64,000 bases of DNA from Planctomycetota bacterium. Its GTDB lineage: Bacteria; Planctomycetota; B15-G4; SIAN01. Below are positions 22,351 through 34,717 of this stretch, piece by piece (position 1 is the stretch's first letter; each line of letters begins with the position of its first letter). Below the pieces are notes generated by a model, which worked only from the letters and a program-made list of their open reading frames with translations, was not told where the DNA came from and did not search any database. The position numbers and the translations under genes were made by a program. The stretch is taken from the NCBI GenBank assembly GCA_031409275.1, contig JANNXA010000016.1:64001-128000 (forward strand), read 5' to 3'.

Positions 22351-22389
22351 GCGAGACTCCTTCGCGAGAGACGAGCGGTGCGACGCTAA

Positions 22390-22547
22390 GAGCGTCTAAC
22401 AGAATGGACGCGTCGCGCCGAGACCGCGCGAGGCAGCCCAGGACGAGGAGACCGAAGCAGGCGACTCCGAAGAGTCGCCGATGGAGGTCGACGAAGTCAT
22501 GGGCGGCCGCAGCCGGTCGAACGCAGCGGACATTCTGTTAGGCGCTC
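22390..22547. mobile_element. 158-bp MITE-like element, copy 2
   Basis: Terminal inverted repeats GAGCGTCTAACAGAATG / CATTCTGTTAGGCGCTC (1 mismatch), flanked by TAA on both sides (22387-22389, 22548-22550). Same length as copy 1. Confidence 0.8.
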
Positions 22548-22558
22548 TAAGGGCCGAT

Positions 22559-23533
22559 TCACTGCGCCGCCAGCGCCTCGTCGAGCAACTTGACCAGCGC
22601 ATCGCGGTCGTACGCGTACTGCTGCCCACCGTTCAACTGCACCACGCGCGCGAGCGCCGCCTTGATCGTCGTCGCGGCCTCGGCCTGGTTCGGCACGACC
22701 AGGTAGCGACGCTTCGGCTGCGGGGAGGTGAGCGCGTGGAGGAACGCCTGCGCCACCTCGTCGGGCTCCTTGTACTGCGCGCGATCGGTCGGGCCGGCGA
22801 GGAGCCGCTCCATCTGCTTCTCGTAGCGCGAGCCCTTGCCCGTGTAGCCGGCGTCCAGCAGCCGCTGGCGCATGTTCACCATGATCTCGCTCTTGTAGTT
22901 GCCCGGGTCGACCAGGCTCACCGCGACGCCGAAGGGCGAAAGCTCCGCGGCCAGCGTGTCGCTGAACGCCTCGATCGCGTGCTTGCTCATCGTGTAGGCG
23001 CCGCCCATCGGCCACGTGACGATGCCGGAGGTCGAGCCAGTCGTCGCGACGCGTCCCTTGCTCTCGATCAGGAGCGGCGCGAACGCCTGCGTCATGCGGT
23101 AGGGGCCGTAGACGTTGGCATCGAGCTGGAAGTCGAGGTCGCTCTCGCGCAGCTCGATCAGCGGGCCGAGCACCGCGACGCCGGCGTTGTTGATGAGCCC
23201 GTAGAGCCCGCGCCCGCCGTCGCGCACCGTCTGCACCGCGGCGTCGATCTGCTCCTGCTTCGTCACATCGAGCTCGATCGGCTGCACGTTCGCGAGCTTG
23301 CCGAGCTCCGCGAGGTCGGCCTCCTTGCGCGCGCCGGCGTAGACGAAGAAGCCGTTCGCCGCGAGCAGCTCGGTCGTCTTGCGGCCGATGCCGGAGCTGG
23401 CACCGGTGACCAGCACCGCGCGCCGCGGCGACGCCGCGGGCGGCGAGGAGTGCGCCGCCGCGTTGCGCAACGACCACCAGCCGGCAAGGAGCGCCACGGC
23501 TCCGCACGCCACGACGATGCGCCACCGATGCAT
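22559..23533 (-). CDS. SDR family oxidoreductase with N-terminal signal/anchor
   Basis: VLVTGASSGIG, LDVT, LINNAG, YTMSK (YxxxK), VSLVDPG. Confidence 0.93.
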   Translation of the reverse strand: MHRWRIVVACGAVALLAGWWSLRNAAAHSSPPAASPRRAVLVTGASSGIGRKTTELLAANGFFVYAGARKEADLAELGKLANVQPIELDVTKQEQIDAAVQTVRDGGRGLYGLINNAGVAVLGPLIELRESDLDFQLDANVYGPYRMTQAFAPLLIESKGRVATTGSTSGIVTWPMGGAYTMSKHAIEAFSDTLAAELSPFGVAVSLVDPGNYKSEIMVNMRQRLLDAGYTGKGSRYEKQMERLLAGPTDRAQYKEPDEVAQAFLHALTSPQPKRRYLVVPNQAEAATTIKAALARVVQLNGGQQYAYDRDALVKLLDEALAAQ

Positions 23534-23833
23534 GCCTCGCTCCATTTCGACCTGCGGGAAAGGCGCGCGCGACTTCGGGCGCGAGGCGGGGGAGGCTACG
23601 AGGGCCGAGCGGGAAGGGCGAGCTGTCGAGCTTTGGGAACAGGAAGGCACCAGTTGATCGGGAGGTGACCGCGCAGGATCGTCACCCCGCCACAAGGAGT
23701 CTCCCCTGGGAAACGGCGCCTCACCGATTCTCCTGACCCGTTCACCCGCCGATTGCGCCTCAGATTCCGGCGGCCGCTCCCGACACAGCGCCCCGATCCA
23801 CCTTCTCGTGTCGAGCTTCCTCCGGAGACCAAC

Positions 23834-24430
23834 ATGGCACAGCGAAAGACCCCCTCGAAGCAGCGCACCGCAGCGAGCCCGTTCGTCGAGTTGACGATCG
23901 AGCAGCTCTACGAAGAGTCGCGGAAGATCGCACACGCGATGTTCCGGAACGAGCCGAGATCCGTCTCCTTCTCGCCGACCAGCATCGTCCATTCGGTGCT
24001 CGCCGACGAGGCGGCGCGCGGCTCGCTGCCGAGCGCCTCGTCCCCCCTCGATCCAACCGAAGCAACGCATCTCCTGCGTCGAATCCGCGTGGCAATCCGG
24101 AACAAGCTGATCGACCGCGCACGCGGCCGTCGGGCGGGGAAGCGCGGCGGTAACGCCAAGCGAGTCGAGCTCGATGAAGCGATGCGAGCCGAGGAACTCG
24201 GACCGGCAGAGATCGCTGAGATCCACGACCTCACCGAGCACCTCATGTCGAACGTGAACGCAATGGATCGCCAGCAGGCGGAGGCGTTCACGTTGCAGTT
24301 CTTCCACGGGCTGACCGTCGAGGAGGTCGCAGCGATCCTGGAAATCCCGATGGAAGCAGCGAAGACGCGGGCGCGCCGCGGTCGGGAGTGGATCGCCGCC
24401 CAAATGCGCCAGCAGAGCGGCGAGGGGTAA
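23834..24430 (+). CDS. ECF-type RNA polymerase sigma factor (TIGR02999/ECF_like, kinase-associated type)
   Basis: LYEESRKIAHAMFRNE...SFSPTSIVH, IRNKLIDRARGRRAGKRGG, and sigma4 FFHGLTVEEVAAIL...AREWI. Directly upstream of a Ser/Thr kinase. Confidence 0.9.
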   Translation: MAQRKTPSKQRTAASPFVELTIEQLYEESRKIAHAMFRNEPRSVSFSPTSIVHSVLADEAARGSLPSASSPLDPTEATHLLRRIRVAIRNKLIDRARGRRAGKRGGNAKRVELDEAMRAEELGPAEIAEIHDLTEHLMSNVNAMDRQQAEAFTLQFFHGLTVEEVAAILEIPMEAAKTRARRGREWIAAQMRQQSGEG

Positions 24431-24462
24431 TCGCGCAGCACCTCGACACCGCTCGCGCACGA

Positions 24463-24494
24463 ACGAGGGCGCCTCCACGCGGAGGCGCCCTCGT
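24463..24494. repeat. Perfect 14-bp inverted repeat between the ECF and kinase genes
   Basis: ACGAGGGCGCCTCC-ACGC-GGAGGCGCCCTCGT; no U-tract on either strand. Confidence 0.75.
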
Positions 24495-24541
24495 CACGCC
24501 TGACGCCCGCGGCTACGCTCCCCCGCCCGAGGGGGTGATCG

Positions 24542-27500
24542 ATGGCTCAGAAGAGAGTGCGACCGACCGCCGCGGCGATACCGGCGACGGCGCCGGTCCC
24601 GACGCACACTCGAACGGCTGGGAGCGACTCTGCGGTCGAGATCGAGGGCTATCGCATCGTCACCCGGCTCGGCGAGGGTGGCTGCGGAGTCGTCTATCTC
24701 GTCGAGGAGTTGAAGCCGGAGCGCGGCTCTGCGCAGCAGTTCGCGGCGAAAGTCCCGCGCGACGATTTCGACCTCGATGCAAACGCTACTCGCCGCCTCT
24801 CCGCGCTTCTCGAGGAGGAGATCAGCAAGCTGCGGGAGCTCCGTGACGAGCCGTCGATTGCCGCCTACCGCGGCACGCCCAAGGCGACCCGGAACGGCAA
24901 GCCAATCCCCTGCGTCCTCACCCGCTACCTGAGCGGCGGCGAACTCCTCAAAGAACTCGACGCGAGGTCGCCGCTGCACATGCGGCTCGCCGCGATGAGC
25001 GAGGTCTGCTACGCCGTCGCGCTTCTGCACGATCGTCACATCGTCCACGGCGACCTCAAGCCCGCGAACCTCCGCTACGACCGGCTGATCCGCGGCAAAC
25101 CCGTGCTGCTCGACTTCGGGCTCGCTGAACCGCTGCGACGGATCGGCCGCGATGCGGAACCGCAGATCGCCTCGCAACGGATCGCGGGAACGCTCGGCTA
25201 CATGGCACCCGAACGACTGCAGCGCGCCGCAGACTGCAACGACGCCGTCGACGTCTTCGCGTTGGGAGTGATCACGTTCGAGCTGCTGACGGGAAAGCGC
25301 GCCTTCTACGACTTGAAGGGACCCGGACCGGACGCGGTCGTGACGGCCATGAAGAGGTGCGCCCCCGAGGTCGAGAGTGCGCTCAATTCAATCCTCGCCG
25401 CCAAGAAGCTGGACGAGCTGCTCCCCTACCTGCGCACCGCGCTGGCGCTCGACCCGAAGCAGCGAACCATCCGTGCACGCAACTTGGCCCATTGGCTCGA
25501 CCACTTCGCGGTGCTGGAACGATTCCGGACCATCCTCCCGAAGCAGGGCTCCAGTGACACGGCGTTCGACACCTACAAGCGGCAGTTCCTCGAAGGGCTG
25601 AAGCACTTCCCGCAGCTCGGCGTCGGCTATCAGTCGGGTGGAAAGGGTGTGCAGGTCCAGACGAGGAGCCCGTACCAGCTCGACCTGCCCGAGATCAAGA
25701 TCGACCTCGTGGCGCAACGCAGGGGGACCGAGCACGCGACGCTGGCAGCCAGCAGCGAAGCCGGCACGATGTCATTCGACGCGCGCGACGCGTTCGAGCA
25801 GGCGCGAAGCGAGCTGCAAGACCAATCGAAACTCGGGTTCTTCCTCATCGGCGGCCCCGGCACCGGCAAGTCGACCTTCTTGCGTCTCCTCGCACTGCAA
25901 GCGATGACGAGCGACGGGCGCCAACGGCTTGGCCTCGGTGAGTCGCGCGTCATTCCCGTGATGGTGCAGCTCGCCGCCTACAAGGATTTCACTCCGCCGG
26001 ACCAGAGATCGCGAGGGAGGTCGAAGGTCCCTCAGCTCAGGCTGGCCCAATTCGTCAATTCCGTCATCGCGCAGACTTGTGCCGACTGCCGCGTTGAACC
26101 CGCGGTGCTTGCAAAACAGGGCGACCTGCTTCTCCTGCTCGACGGACTCGACGAGGTCGAGACGCAGCGCGACGAAATCGTGACGCAACTTTGCGATGCG
26201 CGTTGGCCGTGGAAGGGCCACCCGACGGTCGTCACTTGCCGGCCGGCTGGATTCGAGAGCCTCAAGCCCAAGCCGACCGATCACTTCGCGATCTTCCAGC
26301 TCGGCGGAGTCGACCTGCGCACGGCTCAGGCATTCGTCCGCAAGTGGTTTTTCCACGTCGCGACGAGCCACACCGTGCGCTCGAAGGAGAACGACCCGGG
26401 GGCCCATGGATCCGCGGACCGCATCGCGCAGCACGAACAAATGGCCGAATCGCTCTGCCAACAGTTGCGCGAACGGCGGATCGAGCTGTCGTCGCTGGTG
26501 TCGATCCCCCTGCTGCTGACGATGGTTTGCATCGTCCATCGCTTCCGCTGCCGGAACGGGCAAGTCGACCAGCCGCTCCCGGCGACGATTCACGATCTGT
26601 ACGAGGCCTTCGTGCAGACGGCGCTGCGGGAGTGGCCGCACTTCCGGAGCAAGGCGTCGCCAGGACATCGCCACGATTCACGGAAGCCCGCCGCGAACGA
26701 AGGCAACGACGGCGGAGACGATCCGACGACGCCCGACGAACTGCGGCTTGCCCTGGAATCGATCGCGCTCTATCTCCGCAGCGTGGCGTTGAAGGCGAAG
26801 GACGACGCCAAGAAGCAGACCACTCCGGCGACGCGCACGACCGAGCGTGCCGGTCGCCAGGCACTGGACACAATTCTGAAGGATGAGGCGTGGGCCGCCC
26901 TCCCGTGGGAGGGCGCGAAGTTCGAGCGCTTCTGGCAATTGGCCAACGACGAGTCGGGGCTGTTCGCCAACCACGGCGGCGCTGACCAGTGGGGCTTCCT
27001 CCACCTCGGCATCGAGGAGCACCTTGCCGCCAGCGCGTTGGCGCGCGACCCGCTCCGGGTTGGCTTCGGCATCGACCAGCTGGTCGAGCGCTTCGATGCG
27101 GTTGCGTTGCGAGAGGTCATCGGCGACTTCGCCGCGACCGCCCATGAGCTTCATGTCGAGGCGCTATTGGCCGCGGTGCTGCGCTCCGATCGGATCGCGG
27201 CCTTCGAGCAGCCGCTGGAAGTGGTGCTGCGCGCGCTGACGCGCCGTTTCGCGCCGACGGGGCGTGTGACGTCTGATCCTCGGCAGTCACAGATTCGCAC
27301 GCGCTTCCGGCAGATGCTGCTGCCAATCCTTCTGCAACCGGCCGCCGCCGCGGAGAAGCTTCGAGCTCGGCAGCTCGCCGCACGGATGGCGGCATTCCGT
27401 CAGCTGCGCGGGTGGGTTGTTCTGGCTTCCGAAGCCTGGAAGGAGCTCCGCTCAGCGTTGGCGGCGGATCACCACTTCGGCTCTCTCGAACTCGAGCTTT

Positions 27501-28258
27501 GGGCTCGCAACGAACTCGAAACGCGTGAATTCCAACGCGATCCCAAGAGCGGGATCGTGTTCGTGAAGGTGAAGGGAGCGCGCTTCGGCTTCGCGCAGGA
27601 CAAACCGGATGCAAGCTGGAACCACGACTATGAGCTGCAGCGCCACCAGCAGAAGCGCGAACGAGTCGTCGACCTGGCCGACTTCTGGCTGGCGACTGCC
27701 CCCGTCACCAACGAGCAGTACCGCCGCTTCCTCGACGATCGCGATGGCGATGCGGAGAACGACGATCTCCCGGAGTCGATGACGACTGCGGGCTTCGATG
27801 GACCGCAGCAGCCCGTCACCGGAGTCACCGCACTCGACTGCGAGAAGTTCTGCCGTTGGTGCTCGTCGCAAAGCGGTCCGCCGATCCGACTGCCCACCGC
27901 GGATGAGTGGGAGTACGCCTGCGTGGCGGGCAACGCCGCGCAGCAGGAGTACTGGAGCGGAAACGGAGAGGAAGCACTTGCAGCCGTCGGCTGGTACGCC
28001 GCGAACTCGGGCGGTACCACCCATCTGGTCGGACAGAAGCCGCCAAACGCCTTCGGACTCCACGACCTGCATGGCAACGTCTGGGAGTGGTGCGCTGACG
28101 ATCACCCATGCGACGCCGGCAGCCGCGTGGTTCGTGGCGGCAGCTTTGCCTTCGACGTCGCCGCGATCGCGCGGTCGGCCTTCCGGAACGCCTTCCAGCC
28201 GGGCTTTCGCTTCCGGTTCTTGGGCTTCCGCGCCGCCAAGGGTGTCTCCACTTTTTGA
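24542..28258 (+). CDS. Ser/Thr kinase - NACHT NTPase - FGE-sulfatase/CLec protein; DGR target
   Basis: Kinase: GEGGCGVVY, AAK, HGDLKPAN, DFG, GTLGYMAPE, DVFALG. NACHT: GGPGTGKST, LLLLDGLDEV, VTCRP, IPLLL, FLHLGIEEHLAA. FGE/CLec: PVTNEQY, RLPTADEWEYAC, PNAFGLHDLHGNVWEWC, RVVRGGSF, LGFR. Confidence 0.95.
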   Translation: MAQKRVRPTAAAIPATAPVPTHTRTAGSDSAVEIEGYRIVTRLGEGGCGVVYLVEELKPERGSAQQFAAKVPRDDFDLDANATRRLSALLEEEISKLRELRDEPSIAAYRGTPKATRNGKPIPCVLTRYLSGGELLKELDARSPLHMRLAAMSEVCYAVALLHDRHIVHGDLKPANLRYDRLIRGKPVLLDFGLAEPLRRIGRDAEPQIASQRIAGTLGYMAPERLQRAADCNDAVDVFALGVITFELLTGKRAFYDLKGPGPDAVVTAMKRCAPEVESALNSILAAKKLDELLPYLRTALALDPKQRTIRARNLAHWLDHFAVLERFRTILPKQGSSDTAFDTYKRQFLEGLKHFPQLGVGYQSGGKGVQVQTRSPYQLDLPEIKIDLVAQRRGTEHATLAASSEAGTMSFDARDAFEQARSELQDQSKLGFFLIGGPGTGKSTFLRLLALQAMTSDGRQRLGLGESRVIPVMVQLAAYKDFTPPDQRSRGRSKVPQLRLAQFVNSVIAQTCADCRVEPAVLAKQGDLLLLLDGLDEVETQRDEIVTQLCDARWPWKGHPTVVTCRPAGFESLKPKPTDHFAIFQLGGVDLRTAQAFVRKWFFHVATSHTVRSKENDPGAHGSADRIAQHEQMAESLCQQLRERRIELSSLVSIPLLLTMVCIVHRFRCRNGQVDQPLPATIHDLYEAFVQTALREWPHFRSKASPGHRHDSRKPAANEGNDGGDDPTTPDELRLALESIALYLRSVALKAKDDAKKQTTPATRTTERAGRQALDTILKDEAWAALPWEGAKFERFWQLANDESGLFANHGGADQWGFLHLGIEEHLAASALARDPLRVGFGIDQLVERFDAVALREVIGDFAATAHELHVEALLAAVLRSDRIAAFEQPLEVVLRALTRRFAPTGRVTSDPRQSQIRTRFRQMLLPILLQPAAAAEKLRARQLAARMAAFRQLRGWVVLASEAWKELRSALAADHHFGSLELELWARNELETREFQRDPKSGIVFVKVKGARFGFAQDKPDASWNHDYELQRHQQKRERVVDLADFWLATAPVTNEQYRRFLDDRDGDAENDDLPESMTTAGFDGPQQPVTGVTALDCEKFCRWCSSQSGPPIRLPTADEWEYACVAGNAAQQEYWSGNGEEALAAVGWYAANSGGTTHLVGQKPPNAFGLHDLHGNVWEWCADDHPCDAGSRVVRGGSFAFDVAAIARSAFRNAFQPGFRFRFLGFRAAKGVSTF
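28109..28239 (+). repeat. DGR variable region (VR)
   Basis: 131-bp ungapped match to 30388-30518 with 14 mismatches, all at TR adenines. Encodes the C-terminal part of the CLec domain. Confidence 0.97.
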
Positions 28259-28433
28259 CTTCACCACCTCACCACGAAGATCGCTGCGCCCACGATCGAC
28301 ACCGGCGTTGACAACCGGGCCCACCCGCGGTGTCGTGCTCGTATTTCGTTCGATTGACGGTGTGCTGGTAGGTGGGTAGTGGGCGGAGGGCGCGTAGTGC
28401 GACGTCGTGTGCGTCGCCGCTGGAGCCACGCCC

Positions 28434-28982
28434 TTGCGAGTCCATCTCCTGACGCTGCGATACAGCAGCACGCTTGGCGCCTTCGATACGGCACCGCTCA
28501 CCGCGCTGACCCACGGCTGCGAAGTCGTCGCCTTCCGCGAGCACTTCTTCCAAGTCGCGGACGTGCCGCATGCGCTGTGCGTCGTCACCGTCCATGACCC
28601 GCCGCCGCTTGCGCAAGGAGGCCACGAGGCGCGCTCCCGTGCGGACCACGGGGCGCCTTCCGGCTTGCCGCGCACCCGCACGCCTCGTGAAAGCCGTGAC
28701 CTCCGTCCCTTCGCGGCGCTGGATGAGGCACAACGCCAGCTCTTCAACCGGCTGCGTGAATGGCGATCGGCGACGGCGAAGTCGGAGGGGGTCCCTCCGT
28801 ACGTGCTGCTCACCAATCGCGAGGCGGTGCGCATCATCCTCGCCGCACCCGATTCGCTGACCACGCTCGGCCAGCTCGAAGGGATCGGCGCCAGCAAGGT
28901 CACGCGCTACGGCCATGCGATCCTCGGCTGCCTCCAGGGTGCGCCCGTCGCCAGCGCGCAAGCCGCGGAGCCGACGTCGTGA
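28434..28982 (+). CDS. HRDC-domain DGR accessory protein
   Basis: Likely TTG start (MRVHLLTLRY) 8 nt after GGAG; alternative GTG at 28407. C-terminal HRDC: LFNRLREWRSATAKSEGVPPYVLLTNRE...LGQLEGIGASKVTRYG. Confidence 0.88.
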   Translation: MRVHLLTLRYSSTLGAFDTAPLTALTHGCEVVAFREHFFQVADVPHALCVVTVHDPPPLAQGGHEARSRADHGAPSGLPRTRTPRESRDLRPFAALDEAQRQLFNRLREWRSATAKSEGVPPYVLLTNREAVRIILAAPDSLTTLGQLEGIGASKVTRYGHAILGCLQGAPVASAQAAEPTS

Positions 28983-29356
28983 CGGCCCCCATCGATCGTC
29001 CGCGCGCACGCGAAGCCGGACCGGAACTCCTGGTGCTGGCCCGTTTCGAGGAGGGCACTCGGTGGCTCCTGGATCACACCGCACGCTGGCCGAAGCACGC
29101 GCGCTTCACCCTGACGCAACGGGTCGAGAACCATGCGCTCGACATCGTCGAGCTGCTGGTCCACGCGCGCTACGAGCCGCGTGGGCGCGCGGCACGGCTT
29201 GGCGACGTCAACCTGCGCCTCGAACGGATGCGCTTCCTGTTCCGGCTGGCGCATCACACGCGGGTGATGCATGCCGCCGGCTTCGAGACGGCCATGCGTT
29301 GGCTCGACGAGAGCGGGCGGATGTTGTTCGGCTGGCGCCAGGCGCTCGCGCCATGA
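28979..29356 (+). CDS. avd: DGR accessory variability determinant (Avd-like four-helix bundle)
   Basis: About 125 aa, basic; WPKHARFTLTQRVENHALDI...LERMRFLFRLA...ESGRMLFGW. Overlaps HRDC (GTGA) and RT (ATGA). Confidence 0.92.
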   Translation: MTAPIDRPRAREAGPELLVLARFEEGTRWLLDHTARWPKHARFTLTQRVENHALDIVELLVHARYEPRGRAARLGDVNLRLERMRFLFRLAHHTRVMHAAGFETAMRWLDESGRMLFGWRQALAP

Positions 29357-30369
29357 GACGGAAAGGCGGTCATTGGCCGCTCATCACCCGCTTCGACCAT
29401 CTCTGCGCCTCGGCATGGCGAGCCGCCCGCGGCAAACGACAGACGGCCACGGTCGCGCGGTTCCTCGAACGACTCGAACCCGAGGTGCTGCAGCTGAAGC
29501 GCGAGCTCGAGACCCAGAGCTGGCGACCGCAACCACCCACCCGTTTCCGCATCCTCGATCCGAAGGAGCGCACGATCACCGCAGCGGCGTTCCGCGATCG
29601 AGTCGTCCACCACGCGTTGATCGACGCCATCGAGCCAGCCCTCGAGCGCCGCATGGTCGCCTGCAGTTTCGCCTGCCGGAAGGGCATGGGAACGCATCGC
29701 GCGCTCGATCACGCCCGACGACTGGTGCGCCGTTTCGGCTGGTTCCTCAAGCTCGACGTGCGCAAGTGCTTCGACTCGCTGCGGCACGACGTGGTCCTGG
29801 CAGCGGCTCGGCGGGTCATCAAGGGACGCGCGACGCTCGCCTTGATCGAGACGATCGTCCGCCACGACGCGAGCGCCGTCGCCGAGGGGCGCGGCCTCCC
29901 GATCGGCAGCCTCACCAGCCAGTGGCTCGCGAACCTCGTGCTGGACCAGCTCGACCACTTCGCGCTGGAGCAGCTGCGCGTTCCCGGCTACGTGCGGTAC
30001 ATGGACGACTTCGCGTTGTTCGGCGGTTCCAAGGGAGAGCTATGGCGCTGGCATGCGGCCGTCGAGCGCTTCCTCCGCGAACGGCTCGGTCTCGAACTGA
30101 AGTCGCAGGCCACCTGCCTCGCGCCGACCACGGAGGGGCTGCCGTTCCTTGGCTGGAGGATCCACCCGGGGACGACGCGGTTGAAGCCGGAGAGTCGGAG
30201 ACGATTACTGCAGCGCCACCGACGACTGACGCGGTCGCTGCAACATGGCGGGATGACGGAGGAGCAGTTCGCGGTGCGAGCACGCAGCCTGTTCGTCCAC
30301 GCCTCAGCGGGATCGACTCTCGCATGGCGCCGCCTCGTTTCGACGAGGGAGCCCATGCCTCGAACTTGA
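29353..30369 (+). CDS. DGR-class reverse transcriptase
   Basis: DPKERTI, FRDRVVHHA, SFACRKGMGTHRA, LKLDVRKCFDS, GLPIGSLTSQWLAN (DGR-type IGxxxSQ), YVRYMDDF, FLGW. 338 aa with no maturase or endonuclease extension. Confidence 0.97.
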   Translation: MRRKGGHWPLITRFDHLCASAWRAARGKRQTATVARFLERLEPEVLQLKRELETQSWRPQPPTRFRILDPKERTITAAAFRDRVVHHALIDAIEPALERRMVACSFACRKGMGTHRALDHARRLVRRFGWFLKLDVRKCFDSLRHDVVLAAARRVIKGRATLALIETIVRHDASAVAEGRGLPIGSLTSQWLANLVLDQLDHFALEQLRVPGYVRYMDDFALFGGSKGELWRWHAAVERFLRERLGLELKSQATCLAPTTEGLPFLGWRIHPGTTRLKPESRRRLLQRHRRLTRSLQHGGMTEEQFAVRARSLFVHASAGSTLAWRRLVSTREPMPRT

Positions 30370-30387
30370 TTGAACGTCCGTCGGCCG

Positions 30388-30518
30388 TGCGACGCCGGCA
30401 ACCGCGTGGTTCGTGGCGGCAGCTTTGCCAACGACGACGCCGCGAACGCGCGGTCGGCCTACCGGAACGCCAACCAGCCGGGCAATCGCAACCGGAACTT
30501 GGGCTTCCGCGCCGCCAA
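30388..30518 (+). ncRNA. DGR template region (TR)
   Basis: AAC-rich copy of the VR starting 19 nt after the RT stop; 8 AAY codons in the VR frame. Confidence 0.96.
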
Positions 30519-30690
30519 TGTGTCGCCAACGCCCGATCGGCGCGCTCGCCGTGCGAACGGCATCGCGTCGCAGAGCACGGGACACCCAGGTCGACGGACG
30601 TGGCCGAGGTGACGAGCCTCGGACGAATAGCTGTGGCCGCGCCGGGGCTCGTAGGCCGCAAGGCCGAGCGCTCCGGCGCGGCGTTTCTTC
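30519..30690 (+). ncRNA. Structured 3' part of the DGR RNA (spacer), ending in a terminator-like hairpin
   Basis: Hairpins GCCGT-GCGA-ACGGC (30548-30561), CCGAGG/CCTCGG (30604-30622), and GCCGCGCCGG...GGCC-GCAA-GGCC...CCGGCGCGGC (30636-30682) followed by GTTTCTT. Confidence 0.6.
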
Positions 30691-30821
30691 AGGACACCGG
30701 GTGCGACAGGAGCACTTGTCCGCGGTTTGACCCCGTGCGTCGGCAACTGCGCCTGAGTGGGCTCCAGGGCGAGGAATGGTGAAGCGCCTCGCCCTCTCAT
30801 CCCAGAACGAGGGTCACTTCA

Positions 30822-31934
30822 ATGGATCGACTGGAACGTAAGGACAAGCAGCTGCTCGTGGCGCCGAGCGGCGAGTGCGTGGACTGCGGGAGTTTCGACT
30901 ACGAGCCAACTGACGCGGGACGCGAAGCGATCCGCGCGGTGCGGACTCGCGCCCTGCAGAAGCGGGGTCGCCTGGCGGCTTCGATGGCCGGTCGCTGGCT
31001 GACCTTGAACGCGGCAGCGATGGGCGCGGCGGCGCTGCTGCCGATCGGGGCGCAGTGGCCGTTCCTGATTGGAGCGGGTGGCATCCTGCAGCGGTTCGCC
31101 ACCTCGGGGATGCTGCACGAGTCGGCCCATCTCACCCTGCTCTCCCGGCGCAAGTGGAACGATGCGATGGGCCGCATCCTGGCGGCGCTGTCGTTCGTCG
31201 ACTTCGACGACTGGAAGGCTGCCCACATGAAGCACCACGCGGAGTTGGCCACCATCCGCGACCCGGAGTACGCCGAGCTGACGCTCCACGGCATGAAGCT
31301 CGACGGCATGTCGCCGAGCGAGTTGGCCCGCATGCTCGTGGCCCCGTTCCAGCCCGCGATGTTGCTGCGCGCCGCGAAGGAGAGCCTGTCGGTCTTCCGC
31401 AAGCGCACGCCGTGGATCGTCTGGGGGGCGCTCGCGAGCCTCGCGCTCGCCTGCGGGCCGCTCGGCATGACGTGGCTGCTGACGTGGTTCATCGCCAGCT
31501 TCTCGACGCGCAAGTTCGTGTGGCTGATCGCCAACGCGACCGAGCACTCCTTCAAGTTGCAGAAGGAGATGGAGGACGGCTCGACGCCGGCCGGCCGGAA
31601 GCTGCGGCAGATGCCCCTGCGGCTGCGGTGGCTGGCCATCTCGCGCGAGCGGCGCGGCGCGCTGTCTCGGCTGATCAGCCCGGAGTCGGAGGCGCTCTAC
31701 CACGCGACCCACCACTACGACGCGGGTGCGCCGGGCGGCGGACTGAAGGAGCTGCACGCCACCCTTCTGCAGCACCAGCCGGGCTATGCGGAAGTGCACA
31801 AGATCACGGACGGCCTCTTCATCGCGAAGCCTGGGCGCGCGGCGGCGCTGGATGACTTGCGCGCCGGAGCCGCTTCGGACGACGCGATCATCAAGTCGGG
31901 TCTCTGCAACGCCGAGGCGCGTCGCGCGGCGTAA
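30822..31934 (+). CDS. Membrane fatty-acid desaturase-family protein
   Basis: Three His boxes (HESAH, HMKHH, HATHH) plus an EH motif, with hydrophobic segments between them. Confidence 0.8.
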
Positions 31935-32058
31935 GCCGTCAGTTCGGATCGCCTGTTCGACCGAGATCGGAGTCATCGACTCCGTGCGCCCGGGTGCTCT
32001 CCTGCAAGAGCACTCGGGCGCTCCCTCCCGCCCCATCGCCGCGGCATCCTGCGCCGCC

Positions 32059-32400
32059 ATGCAAGCGAGCCGGATTCTCTCGATCCTGTTGCGGCTGCAG
32101 ACGCAGGGGCGCGTCTCGGCGCGCGCGTTGGCCGAGGTCTTCGAGGTCTCGGTGCGGACGATCTACCGCGACATCGATGCGTTGAGCGCGGCGGGTGTTC
32201 CGGTCGTGGCGGAGAAGGGGCGCCACGGCGGCTTCGCGTTGCGCGATGGCTACCGCACGCGGCTCCGCCGGCTGGCCGATCGCGGCCGGATCGCGCCGGG
32301 GCTGCTGGCCGACCTCGTGCTGGTCGAGGAGGCGGAGTGAACGGTGGCGGACGGCGAAGGCGTGGATCGGCGGGAAGCTCGCCTACGACCGAGCGCGCGG
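32059..32400 (+). pseudogene. Chimeric remnant: YafY/WYL-regulator N-terminal HTH joined to an amidohydrolase C-terminal fragment
   Basis: [14 protein letters not shown]...[21 protein letters not shown]...[13 protein letters not shown] (HTH_11) switches abruptly to [18 protein letters not shown]. It then continues in another frame as AWIGGKLAYD. Confidence 0.7.
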
Positions 32401-32596
32401 CGAGGACGTGGCCGCGCTCGAGGCGGCCGCACCACCGCCGCTCGAGTCGCGCGGTGGCGACGGCAAGAGCGGCGGCTGCTGCTCGAGCGCCGCTTCCCGC
32501 CGCCGGGCCGGTCGTCCGCTCGCCGGAATCCTTGAGCCGAGCGCGCCGCGGTTCCGGCGGAGGGGTCCTGAAGTCCCTGCTTCAGGAGCCACTCCG

Positions 32597-34717
32597 ATGA
32601 ATCGTTCGATGCGCTTCCCGATCCTCTTGGCGACGGTCGCGGCGGCCGCGGCGTGCGGCGGCGGCGGCGGCAGCAGCCAGGCGAAGAAGGTCGTGACGCA
32701 GCTCTCCGTCGACTTCCCGCCGGCGCGCTCGATGACGAGCAGCACGACCGTCACGATGCGCGGCCGGGCGAGCAACGGCGCCGACGTCGCCTCGCTACAG
32801 GTGAACGGCATCCAGGCCGCCAGCGCCGACGGCTTCCAGAACTGGACCGCCACGGTGTCGCTGCCCGTCGCCTCCAACACGCTGCGCGCGGTCGCGACCG
32901 ATCGCGTCGGGCGTACGCTCGGGCCGATCGACCGGACGGTCGAGATCTCGACACCGCCGGTCAGCCCGCAGCGGCCCACCGTCGACCCGAATCGCCAGCA
33001 ACTCCTCCTCGGCCAGGGCAATCTCGATCCGTTCGGGCTCGTCGCGCTCGACGTCCCGACCGGGCGGTTCGTCGCCGTCTCGGGTCCGACCCGCGGCGCC
33101 GGGGCGTCCTTCGACGGGTTCGTGATGTCGGTGGCGGTCGACGCCGCGTCCGACGTGGCCTACGTCGTCGAGTTCCTCCCGACCCGCATCCGCGAACTCG
33201 ATCTCGCCAGCGGCGATCGCGCCATCCTCTCCGACGACGCGAGCGCCGGCCCCGACCTCGACTTCCCGACGGACGCCGACCTCGACTTGCCTCGGAACCG
33301 CCTCCTGGTGGCCGATCGCGACTTGAGGGCGATCGTCGCCGTCTCCCTCGCCGACGGCTCGCGGTCGATCCTCTCCGACGCCACCCACGGGAGCGGGCCG
33401 GCGTTCAACCTGCCGGACTCGATCCAGGTGGTCGCGAACCAGGGACGCGCGCTGGTCGGGGACGTGATCCTGGGCGCGCTCGTCTCGGTCGACCTCGCCA
33501 GCGGCGCGCGATCGATCGTCTCCGATGCGACGCGCGGCTCGGGCCCGGCGTTCGTCTCGATCGGCGACGTGGCCTTCGACCTCGCGAGCGGCGCGGCGCT
33601 GGTCGTCGACCAGAGCCTCGAGGCGCTCCTCCGCGTCGACCTCGTCACCGGCAACCGGACGATCGTGAGCGACCGGACGACCGGCGGCGGCGCCGCGCTG
33701 CGGTCGCCCGTCGGCGTCACGCTGCTCGCGGACGGGAGCGGCCGGGCGGTGCTGGTCGACAGCGGGCAGGGGACGCTCCTGGCCGTCGACCTCGCGACCG
33801 GCGCCCGGACCGACCTCGAGACGCTGCGGATCGGCGCCGGCCAGCGCCTGGGGCGGGCGAACATCGTCGCGGCGAACCCGGTGAACGGCCACCTCTTCAC
33901 CGCCGGCTTCGACTCGGCGAACCTCTTCGAGATCGACCCGGCGACGGGCGACCGCGCCGTGGTCGCCTCGGAGACGCGCGGCAGCGGGCCGGCGCTCGGG
34001 TTCGTCGTCGCCCTCGCCGTCGCGCCGTCCCTGCGCAAGGCGTTCGTCGCGGACATCGCGCTCGACGGGCTGTTGGCCGTGGACCTCTTCAACGGCGACC
34101 GGACCATCGTCTCGAGCGACTCGATCGGCTCCGGCCCCGCCTTCGACACGCTCGATGCGATCACGATCGACGAGGGCCGGAACCTCGCGATCGTCATGAG
34201 CGAGACCTTCGGCGGCGGCGGCGCCCGGCGCCTGCTGAACGTCGACCTCGCGACCGGCGATCGCAGCGAGCTCTCGGGGCCGACGCGCGGCTCGGGACCG
34301 GCCGCCTTCCGGATCGAGTCGCTGGCGCTCTCCGCCGACGGGATCACGCTCTTCGCCGTGGACGTCGGCCTGCGCGCCGTCTTCCGGATCGATCGCGCCT
34401 CGGGCGACCGGACGATCGTCTCGGACGCGACGACCGGCAGCGGCCCCTCGGTCTCCTTCCTCCAGCCGGGACTCGTGCTCTCGGCCGACGAGGAGAAGGC
34501 CTACATCGTCGACTTCAACTCCGGCCTGCTGGAGGTCGATCTCGCCACCGGCAACCGCGTTGCGCTCGCCGGCCCCACGGTCGGCTCCGGCCCGCAGATC
34601 CAGGGCAGCCTCGCCTTCGGCACCGCGCCCGATCGACTCTTCTCGACCGCCTTCGGCAGCTTCGGCGTCCTCGAGATCGACCTCGCGACCGGCGACCGCG
34701 TGATCGTCTCGCACTGA
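32597..34717 (+). CDS. Lipoprotein with Ig-like domain and 12 beta-propeller-type repeats
   Basis: Lipobox-like AAAAC-GGGGGS; Ig-like segment; 12 repeats of about 50 aa with consensus VDLATGDRTIVSDATRGSGPAF. Confidence 0.8.
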   Translation: MNRSMRFPILLATVAAAAACGGGGGSSQAKKVVTQLSVDFPPARSMTSSTTVTMRGRASNGADVASLQVNGIQAASADGFQNWTATVSLPVASNTLRAVATDRVGRTLGPIDRTVEISTPPVSPQRPTVDPNRQQLLLGQGNLDPFGLVALDVPTGRFVAVSGPTRGAGASFDGFVMSVAVDAASDVAYVVEFLPTRIRELDLASGDRAILSDDASAGPDLDFPTDADLDLPRNRLLVADRDLRAIVAVSLADGSRSILSDATHGSGPAFNLPDSIQVVANQGRALVGDVILGALVSVDLASGARSIVSDATRGSGPAFVSIGDVAFDLASGAALVVDQSLEALLRVDLVTGNRTIVSDRTTGGGAALRSPVGVTLLADGSGRAVLVDSGQGTLLAVDLATGARTDLETLRIGAGQRLGRANIVAANPVNGHLFTAGFDSANLFEIDPATGDRAVVASETRGSGPALGFVVALAVAPSLRKAFVADIALDGLLAVDLFNGDRTIVSSDSIGSGPAFDTLDAITIDEGRNLAIVMSETFGGGGARRLLNVDLATGDRSELSGPTRGSGPAAFRIESLALSADGITLFAVDVGLRAVFRIDRASGDRTIVSDATTGSGPSVSFLQPGLVLSADEEKAYIVDFNSGLLEVDLATGNRVALAGPTVGSGPQIQGSLAFGTAPDRLFSTAFGSFGVLEIDLATGDRVIVSH

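Follow-up and report, generated by a model that had tools for sequence, protein, structure and literature searches.

Can a receptor whose binding surface is rewritten by a retroelement report to its cell through a dedicated sigma factor? The question is raised by a locus at positions 23,834 to 30,690 of the stretch studied here, hereafter the window (64,000 nucleotides of a Planctomycetota bacterium, assembly GCA_031409275.1, contig JANNXA010000016.1, positions 64,001 to 128,000). A first-pass annotation, made from the DNA letters, had described six co-oriented parts in it: an extracytoplasmic function (ECF) sigma factor, a target protein, HRDC, Avd, a reverse transcriptase (RT) and a template repeat (TR), the last four belonging to a diversity-generating retroelement (DGR). 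We located each of them on the + strand where it had been placed. The profiles for Sigma70_ECF, Pkinase, NACHT, FGE-sulfatase, HRDC, bAvd and RVT_1 all matched, and the Pfam domains were all above their gathering cut-offs. The locus is a real DGR that combines a known target class with a sigma switch of known kind; we did not find this combination described. Its features are the following:

23834..24430, + strand: ECF43-like sigma factor (TIGR02999-type), 198 aa; Pfam PF07638 (Sigma70_ECF) 79.5 bits, cut-off 21.1
24542..28258, + strand: DGR target, 1238 aa, Ser/Thr kinase - NACHT - helical region - CLec; from Pfam, motifs, hydropathy and an AlphaFold2 model
28106..28239, + strand: variable repeat (VR), target aa 1189-1233; from alignment to the TR
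28407..28982, + strand: HRDC accessory gene; PF00570 54.7 bits
28979..29356, + strand: Avd accessory gene; NF033474 80.3 bits (cut-off 80), PF22296 49.7 bits
29353..30369, + strand: DGR reverse transcriptase, 338 aa, YMDD; RVT_1 70.5 bits
30385..30518, + strand: TR; from alignment to the VR

By alignment, the VR differed from the TR at 15 of 134 nucleotides; 14 of the mismatches fell at TR adenines and one at the third base of the repeat. Among the 24 adenines of the TR, 14 were changed in the VR, 13 of them from A to T. The VR lies within the FGE-sulfatase match of the target (residues 1034-1233), as expected from its earlier assignment to the C-terminal CLec domain, and the description of the DGR as complete was borne out by an RVT_1 domain with an intact YMDD catalytic motif, an adenine-specific VR/TR pair in a ligand-binding fold, and the Avd and HRDC genes. 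The TR holds 14 variable codons, which allow about 1e13 protein variants and from which a stop codon is unreachable. The closest relatives of the RT were 50-58% identical, came mostly from metagenome-assembled genomes of Planctomycetota and sat in TR/VR cassettes; HRDC homologues, 40-49% identical, occupied the same position in the closest related DGRs. When other VRs were pooled, T accounted for 883 of 2183 changes, with a maximum of 12/14 among the 129 VRs that had at least 10 changes. The window VR was the most T-biased of the VRs examined, with a binomial p of 7e-5; this value overstates the case, since doublets and selection make the changes non-independent. Six of its variable codons have become Phe, perhaps by selection for a hydrophobic binding surface.

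A blastn search of the genome with the TR as query recovered the one VR alone, and hence no second target; a weak TR match on contig C53 was rejected as a remote target, being within an unrelated open reading frame (ORF). No VR variants were seen among the matches listed for contigs of four DNA runs, and contigs drop rare variants. The region 23000-32500 was recovered as one contig with zero differences in each of two freshwater-sediment DNA runs (X1 and X2), possibly the source DNA, and an assembly artefact was rejected as far as this comparison could test it. No RNA run was among those listed for the locus.

The target was matched by Pkinase at residues 37-309, by NACHT at residues 434-603 (PF05729, 34.5 bits, cut-off 26.7) and by FGE-sulfatase toward the C-terminus. 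The kinase motifs and those of NACHT, reported as intact by the first-pass annotation, were found: Gly loop, K70, HGDLKPAN, DFG and APE in the former, GGPGTGKST (Walker A) and LLDGLDE (Walker B) in the latter. The order effector-NACHT-sensor, together with the Walker A and B module, is that of bacterial NACHT proteins and NLR-related STAND proteins. The kinase is of the non-RD kind, with HGD and not HRD in the catalytic loop. An AlphaFold2 model of residues 377-1238, built on a 52-row alignment, reached a predicted template modelling score (pTM) of 0.81. Foldseek matched it to NOD2, NLRC4 and NLRP3 at E values of 3e-10 to 2e-9, and also to FGE-fold proteins, among them the Treponema DGR target TvpA (2y3c). 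No membrane segment was detected after the kinase by Kyte-Doolittle hydropathy, the one predictor used for membrane segments and signal peptides. The sole hydrophobic peak, at residues 647-665 (Kyte-Doolittle 2.17), is the PLLL helix of NACHT, which agrees with the earlier statement that the protein has no obvious transmembrane segment. Most NACHT-free kinase-CLec proteins, in contrast, carry a hydrophobic segment about 35-45 residues past the kinase on the same scale; the target is therefore likely to be cytoplasmic.

The best NCBIfam match of the sigma factor was TIGR02999, with 74.1 bits, and we call it ECF43-like and not an ECF43 member because this score is below the family cut-off of 126.15. 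At the DAED position of region sigma2.2, in a register confirmed against a solved ECF (PDB chain 6dxo_A), it has SPTS, so that uncharged residues and a Thr replace the acidic motif; T49 is the residue equivalent to the phospho-acceptor, and the KRGG motif is retained. A Hanks-type kinase follows directly: between ECF and target there was no other gene, and no anti-sigma factor was recognised. In a quick tree of 73 ECFs, taken from this genome and from fetched loci, the window ECF fell in a clade of 8 with 99% SH-aLRT support, all directly upstream of a kinase. Thr occupied the DAED column in 7/20 kinase-adjacent ECFs and in 0/53 of the others, 35 of which had D or E. These results support the view, already taken by the first-pass annotation, that the ECF is of the kinase-activated type; kinase-associated ECF groups are listed in PMC7826278. 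ECF43 proteins have the consensus QTTA, Thr being present in 88% (PMC13147305), and the equivalent Thr of EcfK and of EcfP is phosphorylated by the adjacent kinase (PMC13147305, PMC8999054). Like EcfK-PknS of Xanthomonas citri (PMC13147305) and EcfP-PknT of Vibrio parahaemolyticus (PMC8999054, PMC13147305), the window pair lacks the DAED acids, keeps the Thr, and has an adjacent kinase and no anti-sigma factor. EcfK with T51A still functions through a second site (PMC13147305), so T49 need not be the sole phosphosite.

We also compared the region with related genomes. By blastn to G004 (L331, same genus), the single informative relative, the match along the SDR gene ended at window position 23552 and resumed at 32019. 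From the SDR gene to the next regulator gene, which we take to be of YafY/WYL type, there are about 70 nt in G004 and 8,466 nt in the window, which on this one comparison points to an insertion. The following features belong to it:

23553..32018, no strand: insert relative to G004 (blastn), containing ECF, target, DGR and a desaturase-like gene
24463..24494, + strand: perfect 14-bp hairpin in the ECF-kinase gap, GC-rich, with a 4-nt loop and no U tract
30822..31934, + strand: fatty-acid-desaturase-like gene within the same insert; PF00487 78.3 bits, G+C at third codon positions (GC3) 0.91, host-like

The GC3 of ECF, target, HRDC, Avd and RT was 0.81-0.83, against 0.92-0.96 in four flanking genes, and one large upstream ORF had 0.86. 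The best match of the ECF in five relatives was 26-41% identical and none was orthologue-like. Shared GC3, joint absence from G004 and the lack of a close ECF in relatives fit a joint acquisition of ECF, target and DGR. With the desaturase-like gene as query, no match was obtained in 5 relatives. At 32059-32340, a helix-turn-helix regulator matched G004 only to about 32265 and then ended early, the gene being full length in G004; this shortening suggests that a second rearrangement borders the insert.

It was also possible to see the arrangement elsewhere. Related DGR loci were collected from genomes and metagenomes, and L021-L213, L294-L330 and the window were scanned with local profiles, leaving out 80 viral loci (RT at most 46% identical) and 20 short loci. 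There were 153 distinct VR-bearing targets; 54 with less than 1 kb of upstream DNA were dropped and 99 counted. An ECF was directly upstream of 2/3 kinase-NACHT-CLec targets, 1/15 kinase-CLec targets, 0/28 kinase-free NACHT-CLec targets and 1/53 other CLec targets. The first and third of these classes differ with a Fisher p of 0.006, overstated because kin are not independent, and since the window is itself one of the two positive targets, the independent support is G416 only. In G416 (L128; same phylum, other family) the same order is found: an ECF43-like sigma factor, a kinase-NACHT-CLec protein with VR, HRDC, Avd, RT and TR. Its ECF has SATR at the DAED position, keeping the Thr, and its stop lies about 45 nt before the target start. 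The first-pass annotation had made its proposal depend on sigma gene and target being conserved together; the ECF does recur with the target, in what are now two genomes. All three kinases of kinase-NACHT-CLec targets were non-RD, compared with 2/67 other classifiable kinases (5 were unclassifiable). A word-index search for homologues gave 107 non-self matches, with Pfam kinase, NACHT and FGE together in none; 9 combined kinase, nSTAND1 and FGE, all RD. A further kinase-metallophosphoesterase-NACHT-CLec protein, P0042, also RD, was recognised by local profile. A search of 1.84 billion representatives, dominated by multi-kinase proteins, gave 149 matches, none with NACHT by local profile; in the 33 scanned in Pfam, NACHT was absent from the five best families of each.

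Several other loci with sigma factors or kinases near a DGR were observed on the way. L320:748-7552 (G598) has an ECF43-type sigma factor (QPTA), a membrane kinase-CLec protein, an intact Avd, a broken HRDC and a truncated RT, with no TR found; judged from these remains it is a decayed DGR behind an ECF43-kinase pair. At L034:1687-7527, a non-ECF43 sigma factor (ESGD) precedes a DGR target of the membrane kinase-CLec type, and the RT there, 55% identical, is among the closest. The metagenome contig L182 (6174-9205) has an ECF with DVLQ, which is not ECF43-like. Immediately after it comes a VR-bearing target that ends in CLec; this target gave a weak FecR match (24.1 bits, cut-off 24) and is possibly a DGR-diversified anti-sigma factor. 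In L030:12328-15012 a kinase ORF continues in frame into TR-like sequence and half of a DGR RT, the 3' one; we read this fusion as the result of a deletion or of misassembly, with the loss of most of a DGR. The genome of the window has three ECF + kinase-CLec pairs on C32, C9 and C44 (L341, L342, L343), without DGR and unmatched by this TR. In many of the related DGRs (L040, L128/L330, L301, L303, L304, L306, L309 and L310), the TR is followed by another NACHT-CLec target, which is encoded on the other strand and has an inverted VR. Near the insert, the gene at window positions 32450-34717 contains internal repeats of 147 nt, and its protein matches the beta-propeller profile PQQ_2 weakly; a similar repeat protein occurs in L025. 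Positions 22381-22556 hold a 31-nt inverted repeat, 81% complementary and with 114 nt spacing, between DUF4139-like and SDR genes.

The target class itself is not new, as the first-pass annotation had said: DGR-diversified kinase-STAND-CLec proteins were published by Kaur et al. 2021 (PMC8195603). In their account, the domains found N-terminally in STAND-FGS proteins with DGRs include S/T/Y kinase, and ECF sigma factors come up in connection with other systems, TRADD-N and EACC2-caspase. The window target resembles the STAND/NACHT-FGS(CLec) putative antigen sensors of multicellular bacteria (PMC8195603, PMC10907252, bioRxiv 2022.07.19.500537) in its effector-NACHT-CLec order, C-terminal VR and adjoining DGR, and FGE-sulfatase domains are listed among STAND sensors (PMC13581612). 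Unlike what is considered here, those sensors are proposed to act through enzymatic effectors, through adaptors or through DNA-binding domains fused to them. The main texts of Dore et al. 2024 (PMC10907252) and Kibby et al. (bioRxiv 2022.07.19.500537) do not contain the word sigma, and in the portions consulted of Kaur, Dore and Kibby et al. no kinase-activated sigma partner was found for these sensors. The accessory genes correspond to the HRDC-containing DGRs of architecture C, with HRDC beside Avd, RT, TR and a CLec target (Wu et al. 2018, PMC5758913); HRDC DGRs are also covered in PMC10053308. Wu et al. list kinase-CLec and TIR/NTPase-CLec targets, and in the consulted part of that paper there was no kinase-NACHT-CLec target or sigma gene ("sigma" 0, "NACHT" 0). 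The pairing of kinase and FGE/CLec is shared with Planctomycetota single-pass kinases that have a periplasmic FGE-sulfatase domain (PMC11032199). Among the kinase-bearing targets of the closest DGRs, such membrane kinase-FGE/CLec proteins are the most frequent; they are nearly all RD and mostly have the hydrophobic segment past the kinase, whereas in the window NACHT replaces the membrane step. For the coupling of a DGR target to a kinase-activated sigma factor, of which the first-pass annotation knew no case, we likewise found no report, supplements aside; the gene-neighbourhood data of Kaur et al. could hold one.

Taking these observations together, an evolvable sensor whose kinase phosphorylates the neighbouring sigma factor seems to us the best explanation of the locus, and we give it about an even chance of being right. 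We infer its steps, from ligand to transcriptional output, as follows. The DGR would diversify the CLec tip of the membrane-free kinase-NACHT-CLec protein. By analogy with STAND proteins, binding of a ligand at CLec, most likely an invader molecule, would relieve autoinhibition so that NACHT oligomerises and clusters the kinases. The oligomerised NACHT likely activates the non-RD kinase, which, going by what is described for ECF43, likely phosphorylates T49 of the sigma factor; once phosphorylated, the sigma factor would associate with RNA polymerase and activate a regulon. The kinase may have toxic substrates too, and it is likely that recognition turns on genes and does not only kill the cell.

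A number of results weigh against this explanation. The ECF-to-kinase gap is 111 nt and a strong, perfect hairpin separates the two genes; the fold of the gap had z = -2.49, and 0/200 shuffles were as good. The hairpin was not called as a terminator and has no second copy in the genome, no counterpart was seen by eye in the short G416 gap, and the scan gave three terminator-like sites where 4.0 were expected. PknS, a receptor kinase that spans the membrane, has an N-terminal helical region of 81 residues (PMC13147305). The window kinase, unlike PknS, is membrane-free, non-RD and fused to NACHT and a hypermutated CLec; it lacks both the membrane segment of a PknS-type partner and the N-terminal helical region present in all six canonical ECF43-adjacent kinases from which our profile was made. 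A quick kinase tree did not group it with ECF43 partner kinases and left it unplaced on a long branch. The whole arrangement is known in two genomes only, whose targets are about 24% identical and whose ECFs gave no significant pairwise BLAST. The G416 DGR has a second kinase-NACHT-CLec target, after the TR and on the opposite strand, without an ECF directly upstream, and no further kinase-NACHT-CLec protein was found with a three-row profile in two sets of 339 and 401 genomes that overlap in part, where scoring covered two candidates from each genome.

The company the kinase keeps bears on what it does. In the equivalent slot of kinase-free NACHT-CLec targets we found TIR in 12, DUF4062 in 8, SIR2 in 2, and a metallophosphoesterase and a nucleoside-deoxyribosyltransferase-like domain in 1 each (24/24 scanned). 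DUF4062 has been described as a TIR-like NADase (bioRxiv 10.64898/2026.05.01.722283), and enzymatic NACHT effectors include kinases (bioRxiv 2022.07.19.500537). Such contents argue for a toxic role of the slot: a kinase of abortive-infection type may have been swapped into the TIR/SIR2 slot, the ECF being the leftover of an ECF43-kinase pair with no part in the output. The NACHT tree agrees with swapped effectors, because the three kinase-bearing NACHTs do not form one clade (approximately unbiased test, p-AU 0.034), one of them branching within DUF4062/TIR targets; a common origin of the two ECF-linked targets was neither shown nor rejected (p-AU 0.278). One of the three kinase-NACHT-CLec targets has no ECF, and the kinase matches the defence-kinase profiles MAD6 and PD-T4-6, probably as a generic kinase signal. 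The statement of the first-pass annotation that the output is transcriptional rather than toxic is therefore not borne out. Yet both ECFs are intact with Thr and KRGG, though only about 30% identical to their best matches elsewhere; a leftover ECF would not be expected in two families, nor does the kinase look derived from a canonical ECF43 partner. On balance, a purely toxic kinase seems to us rather unlikely.

The sigma factor could instead act upstream: other cellular kinases would activate it, and it would drive expression of target and DGR, for example under stress. ECFs usually adjoin the genes they regulate (PMC7826278), no sigma-70-type promoter was found in 23400-31000, and the genome holds three other ECF43-like/kinase pairs. 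As the kinases of those pairs could act on this sigma factor too, the circuit cannot be called established as self-contained, which was the earlier claim. ECF43 members, on the other hand, are as a rule encoded beside their own kinase (PMC13147305), and none of the 28 kinase-free NACHT-CLec targets has an upstream ECF, though they would need such a regulator equally. We hold this direction of control to be distinctly improbable, and it can be combined with phosphorylation by the target kinase as positive feedback. Whether the genes are neighbours by chance, a DGR cassette having landed behind an unrelated ECF, has to be asked in an ECF-rich lineage: the genome has 61 ECF-like ORFs and 13/40 kinases follow one, so ECF-kinase adjacency alone is common here, and the 111-nt gap with its hairpin suits such a landing. 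Chance would leave unexplained the GC3 and the insert shared by ECF, target and DGR, the place of the ECF in a kinase-dependent clade and the recurrence in G416, and we regard it as very unlikely.

If the sensor does signal through its sigma factor, some Planctomycetota-like bacteria would have built, perhaps repeatedly, an adaptive intracellular receptor: an NLR, diversified by a DGR, with a non-RD kinase that acts on a sigma factor dedicated to it, so that phosphorylation gives a transcriptional output in one step. We advance this wider proposal tentatively, at a little under an even chance. Bacterial NLR-related proteins in the literature consulted act through enzymatic effectors and cell death. 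Non-RD kinases are reportedly associated with innate immune signalling (PMC8463890), an association echoed by the non-RD state of all three kinase-NACHT-CLec kinases. A sigma-dependent promoter could then report on VR variants and on candidate ligands of DGR-diversified CLec sensors. Together with L320, which has an ECF43 and a membrane kinase-CLec protein, and L182, which has an ECF and a FecR-CLec protein, the locus would speak for repeated control of sigma factors by hypermutated receptors, and bacteria would have an evolvable, possibly non-lethal, transcriptional response for immunity or kin recognition.

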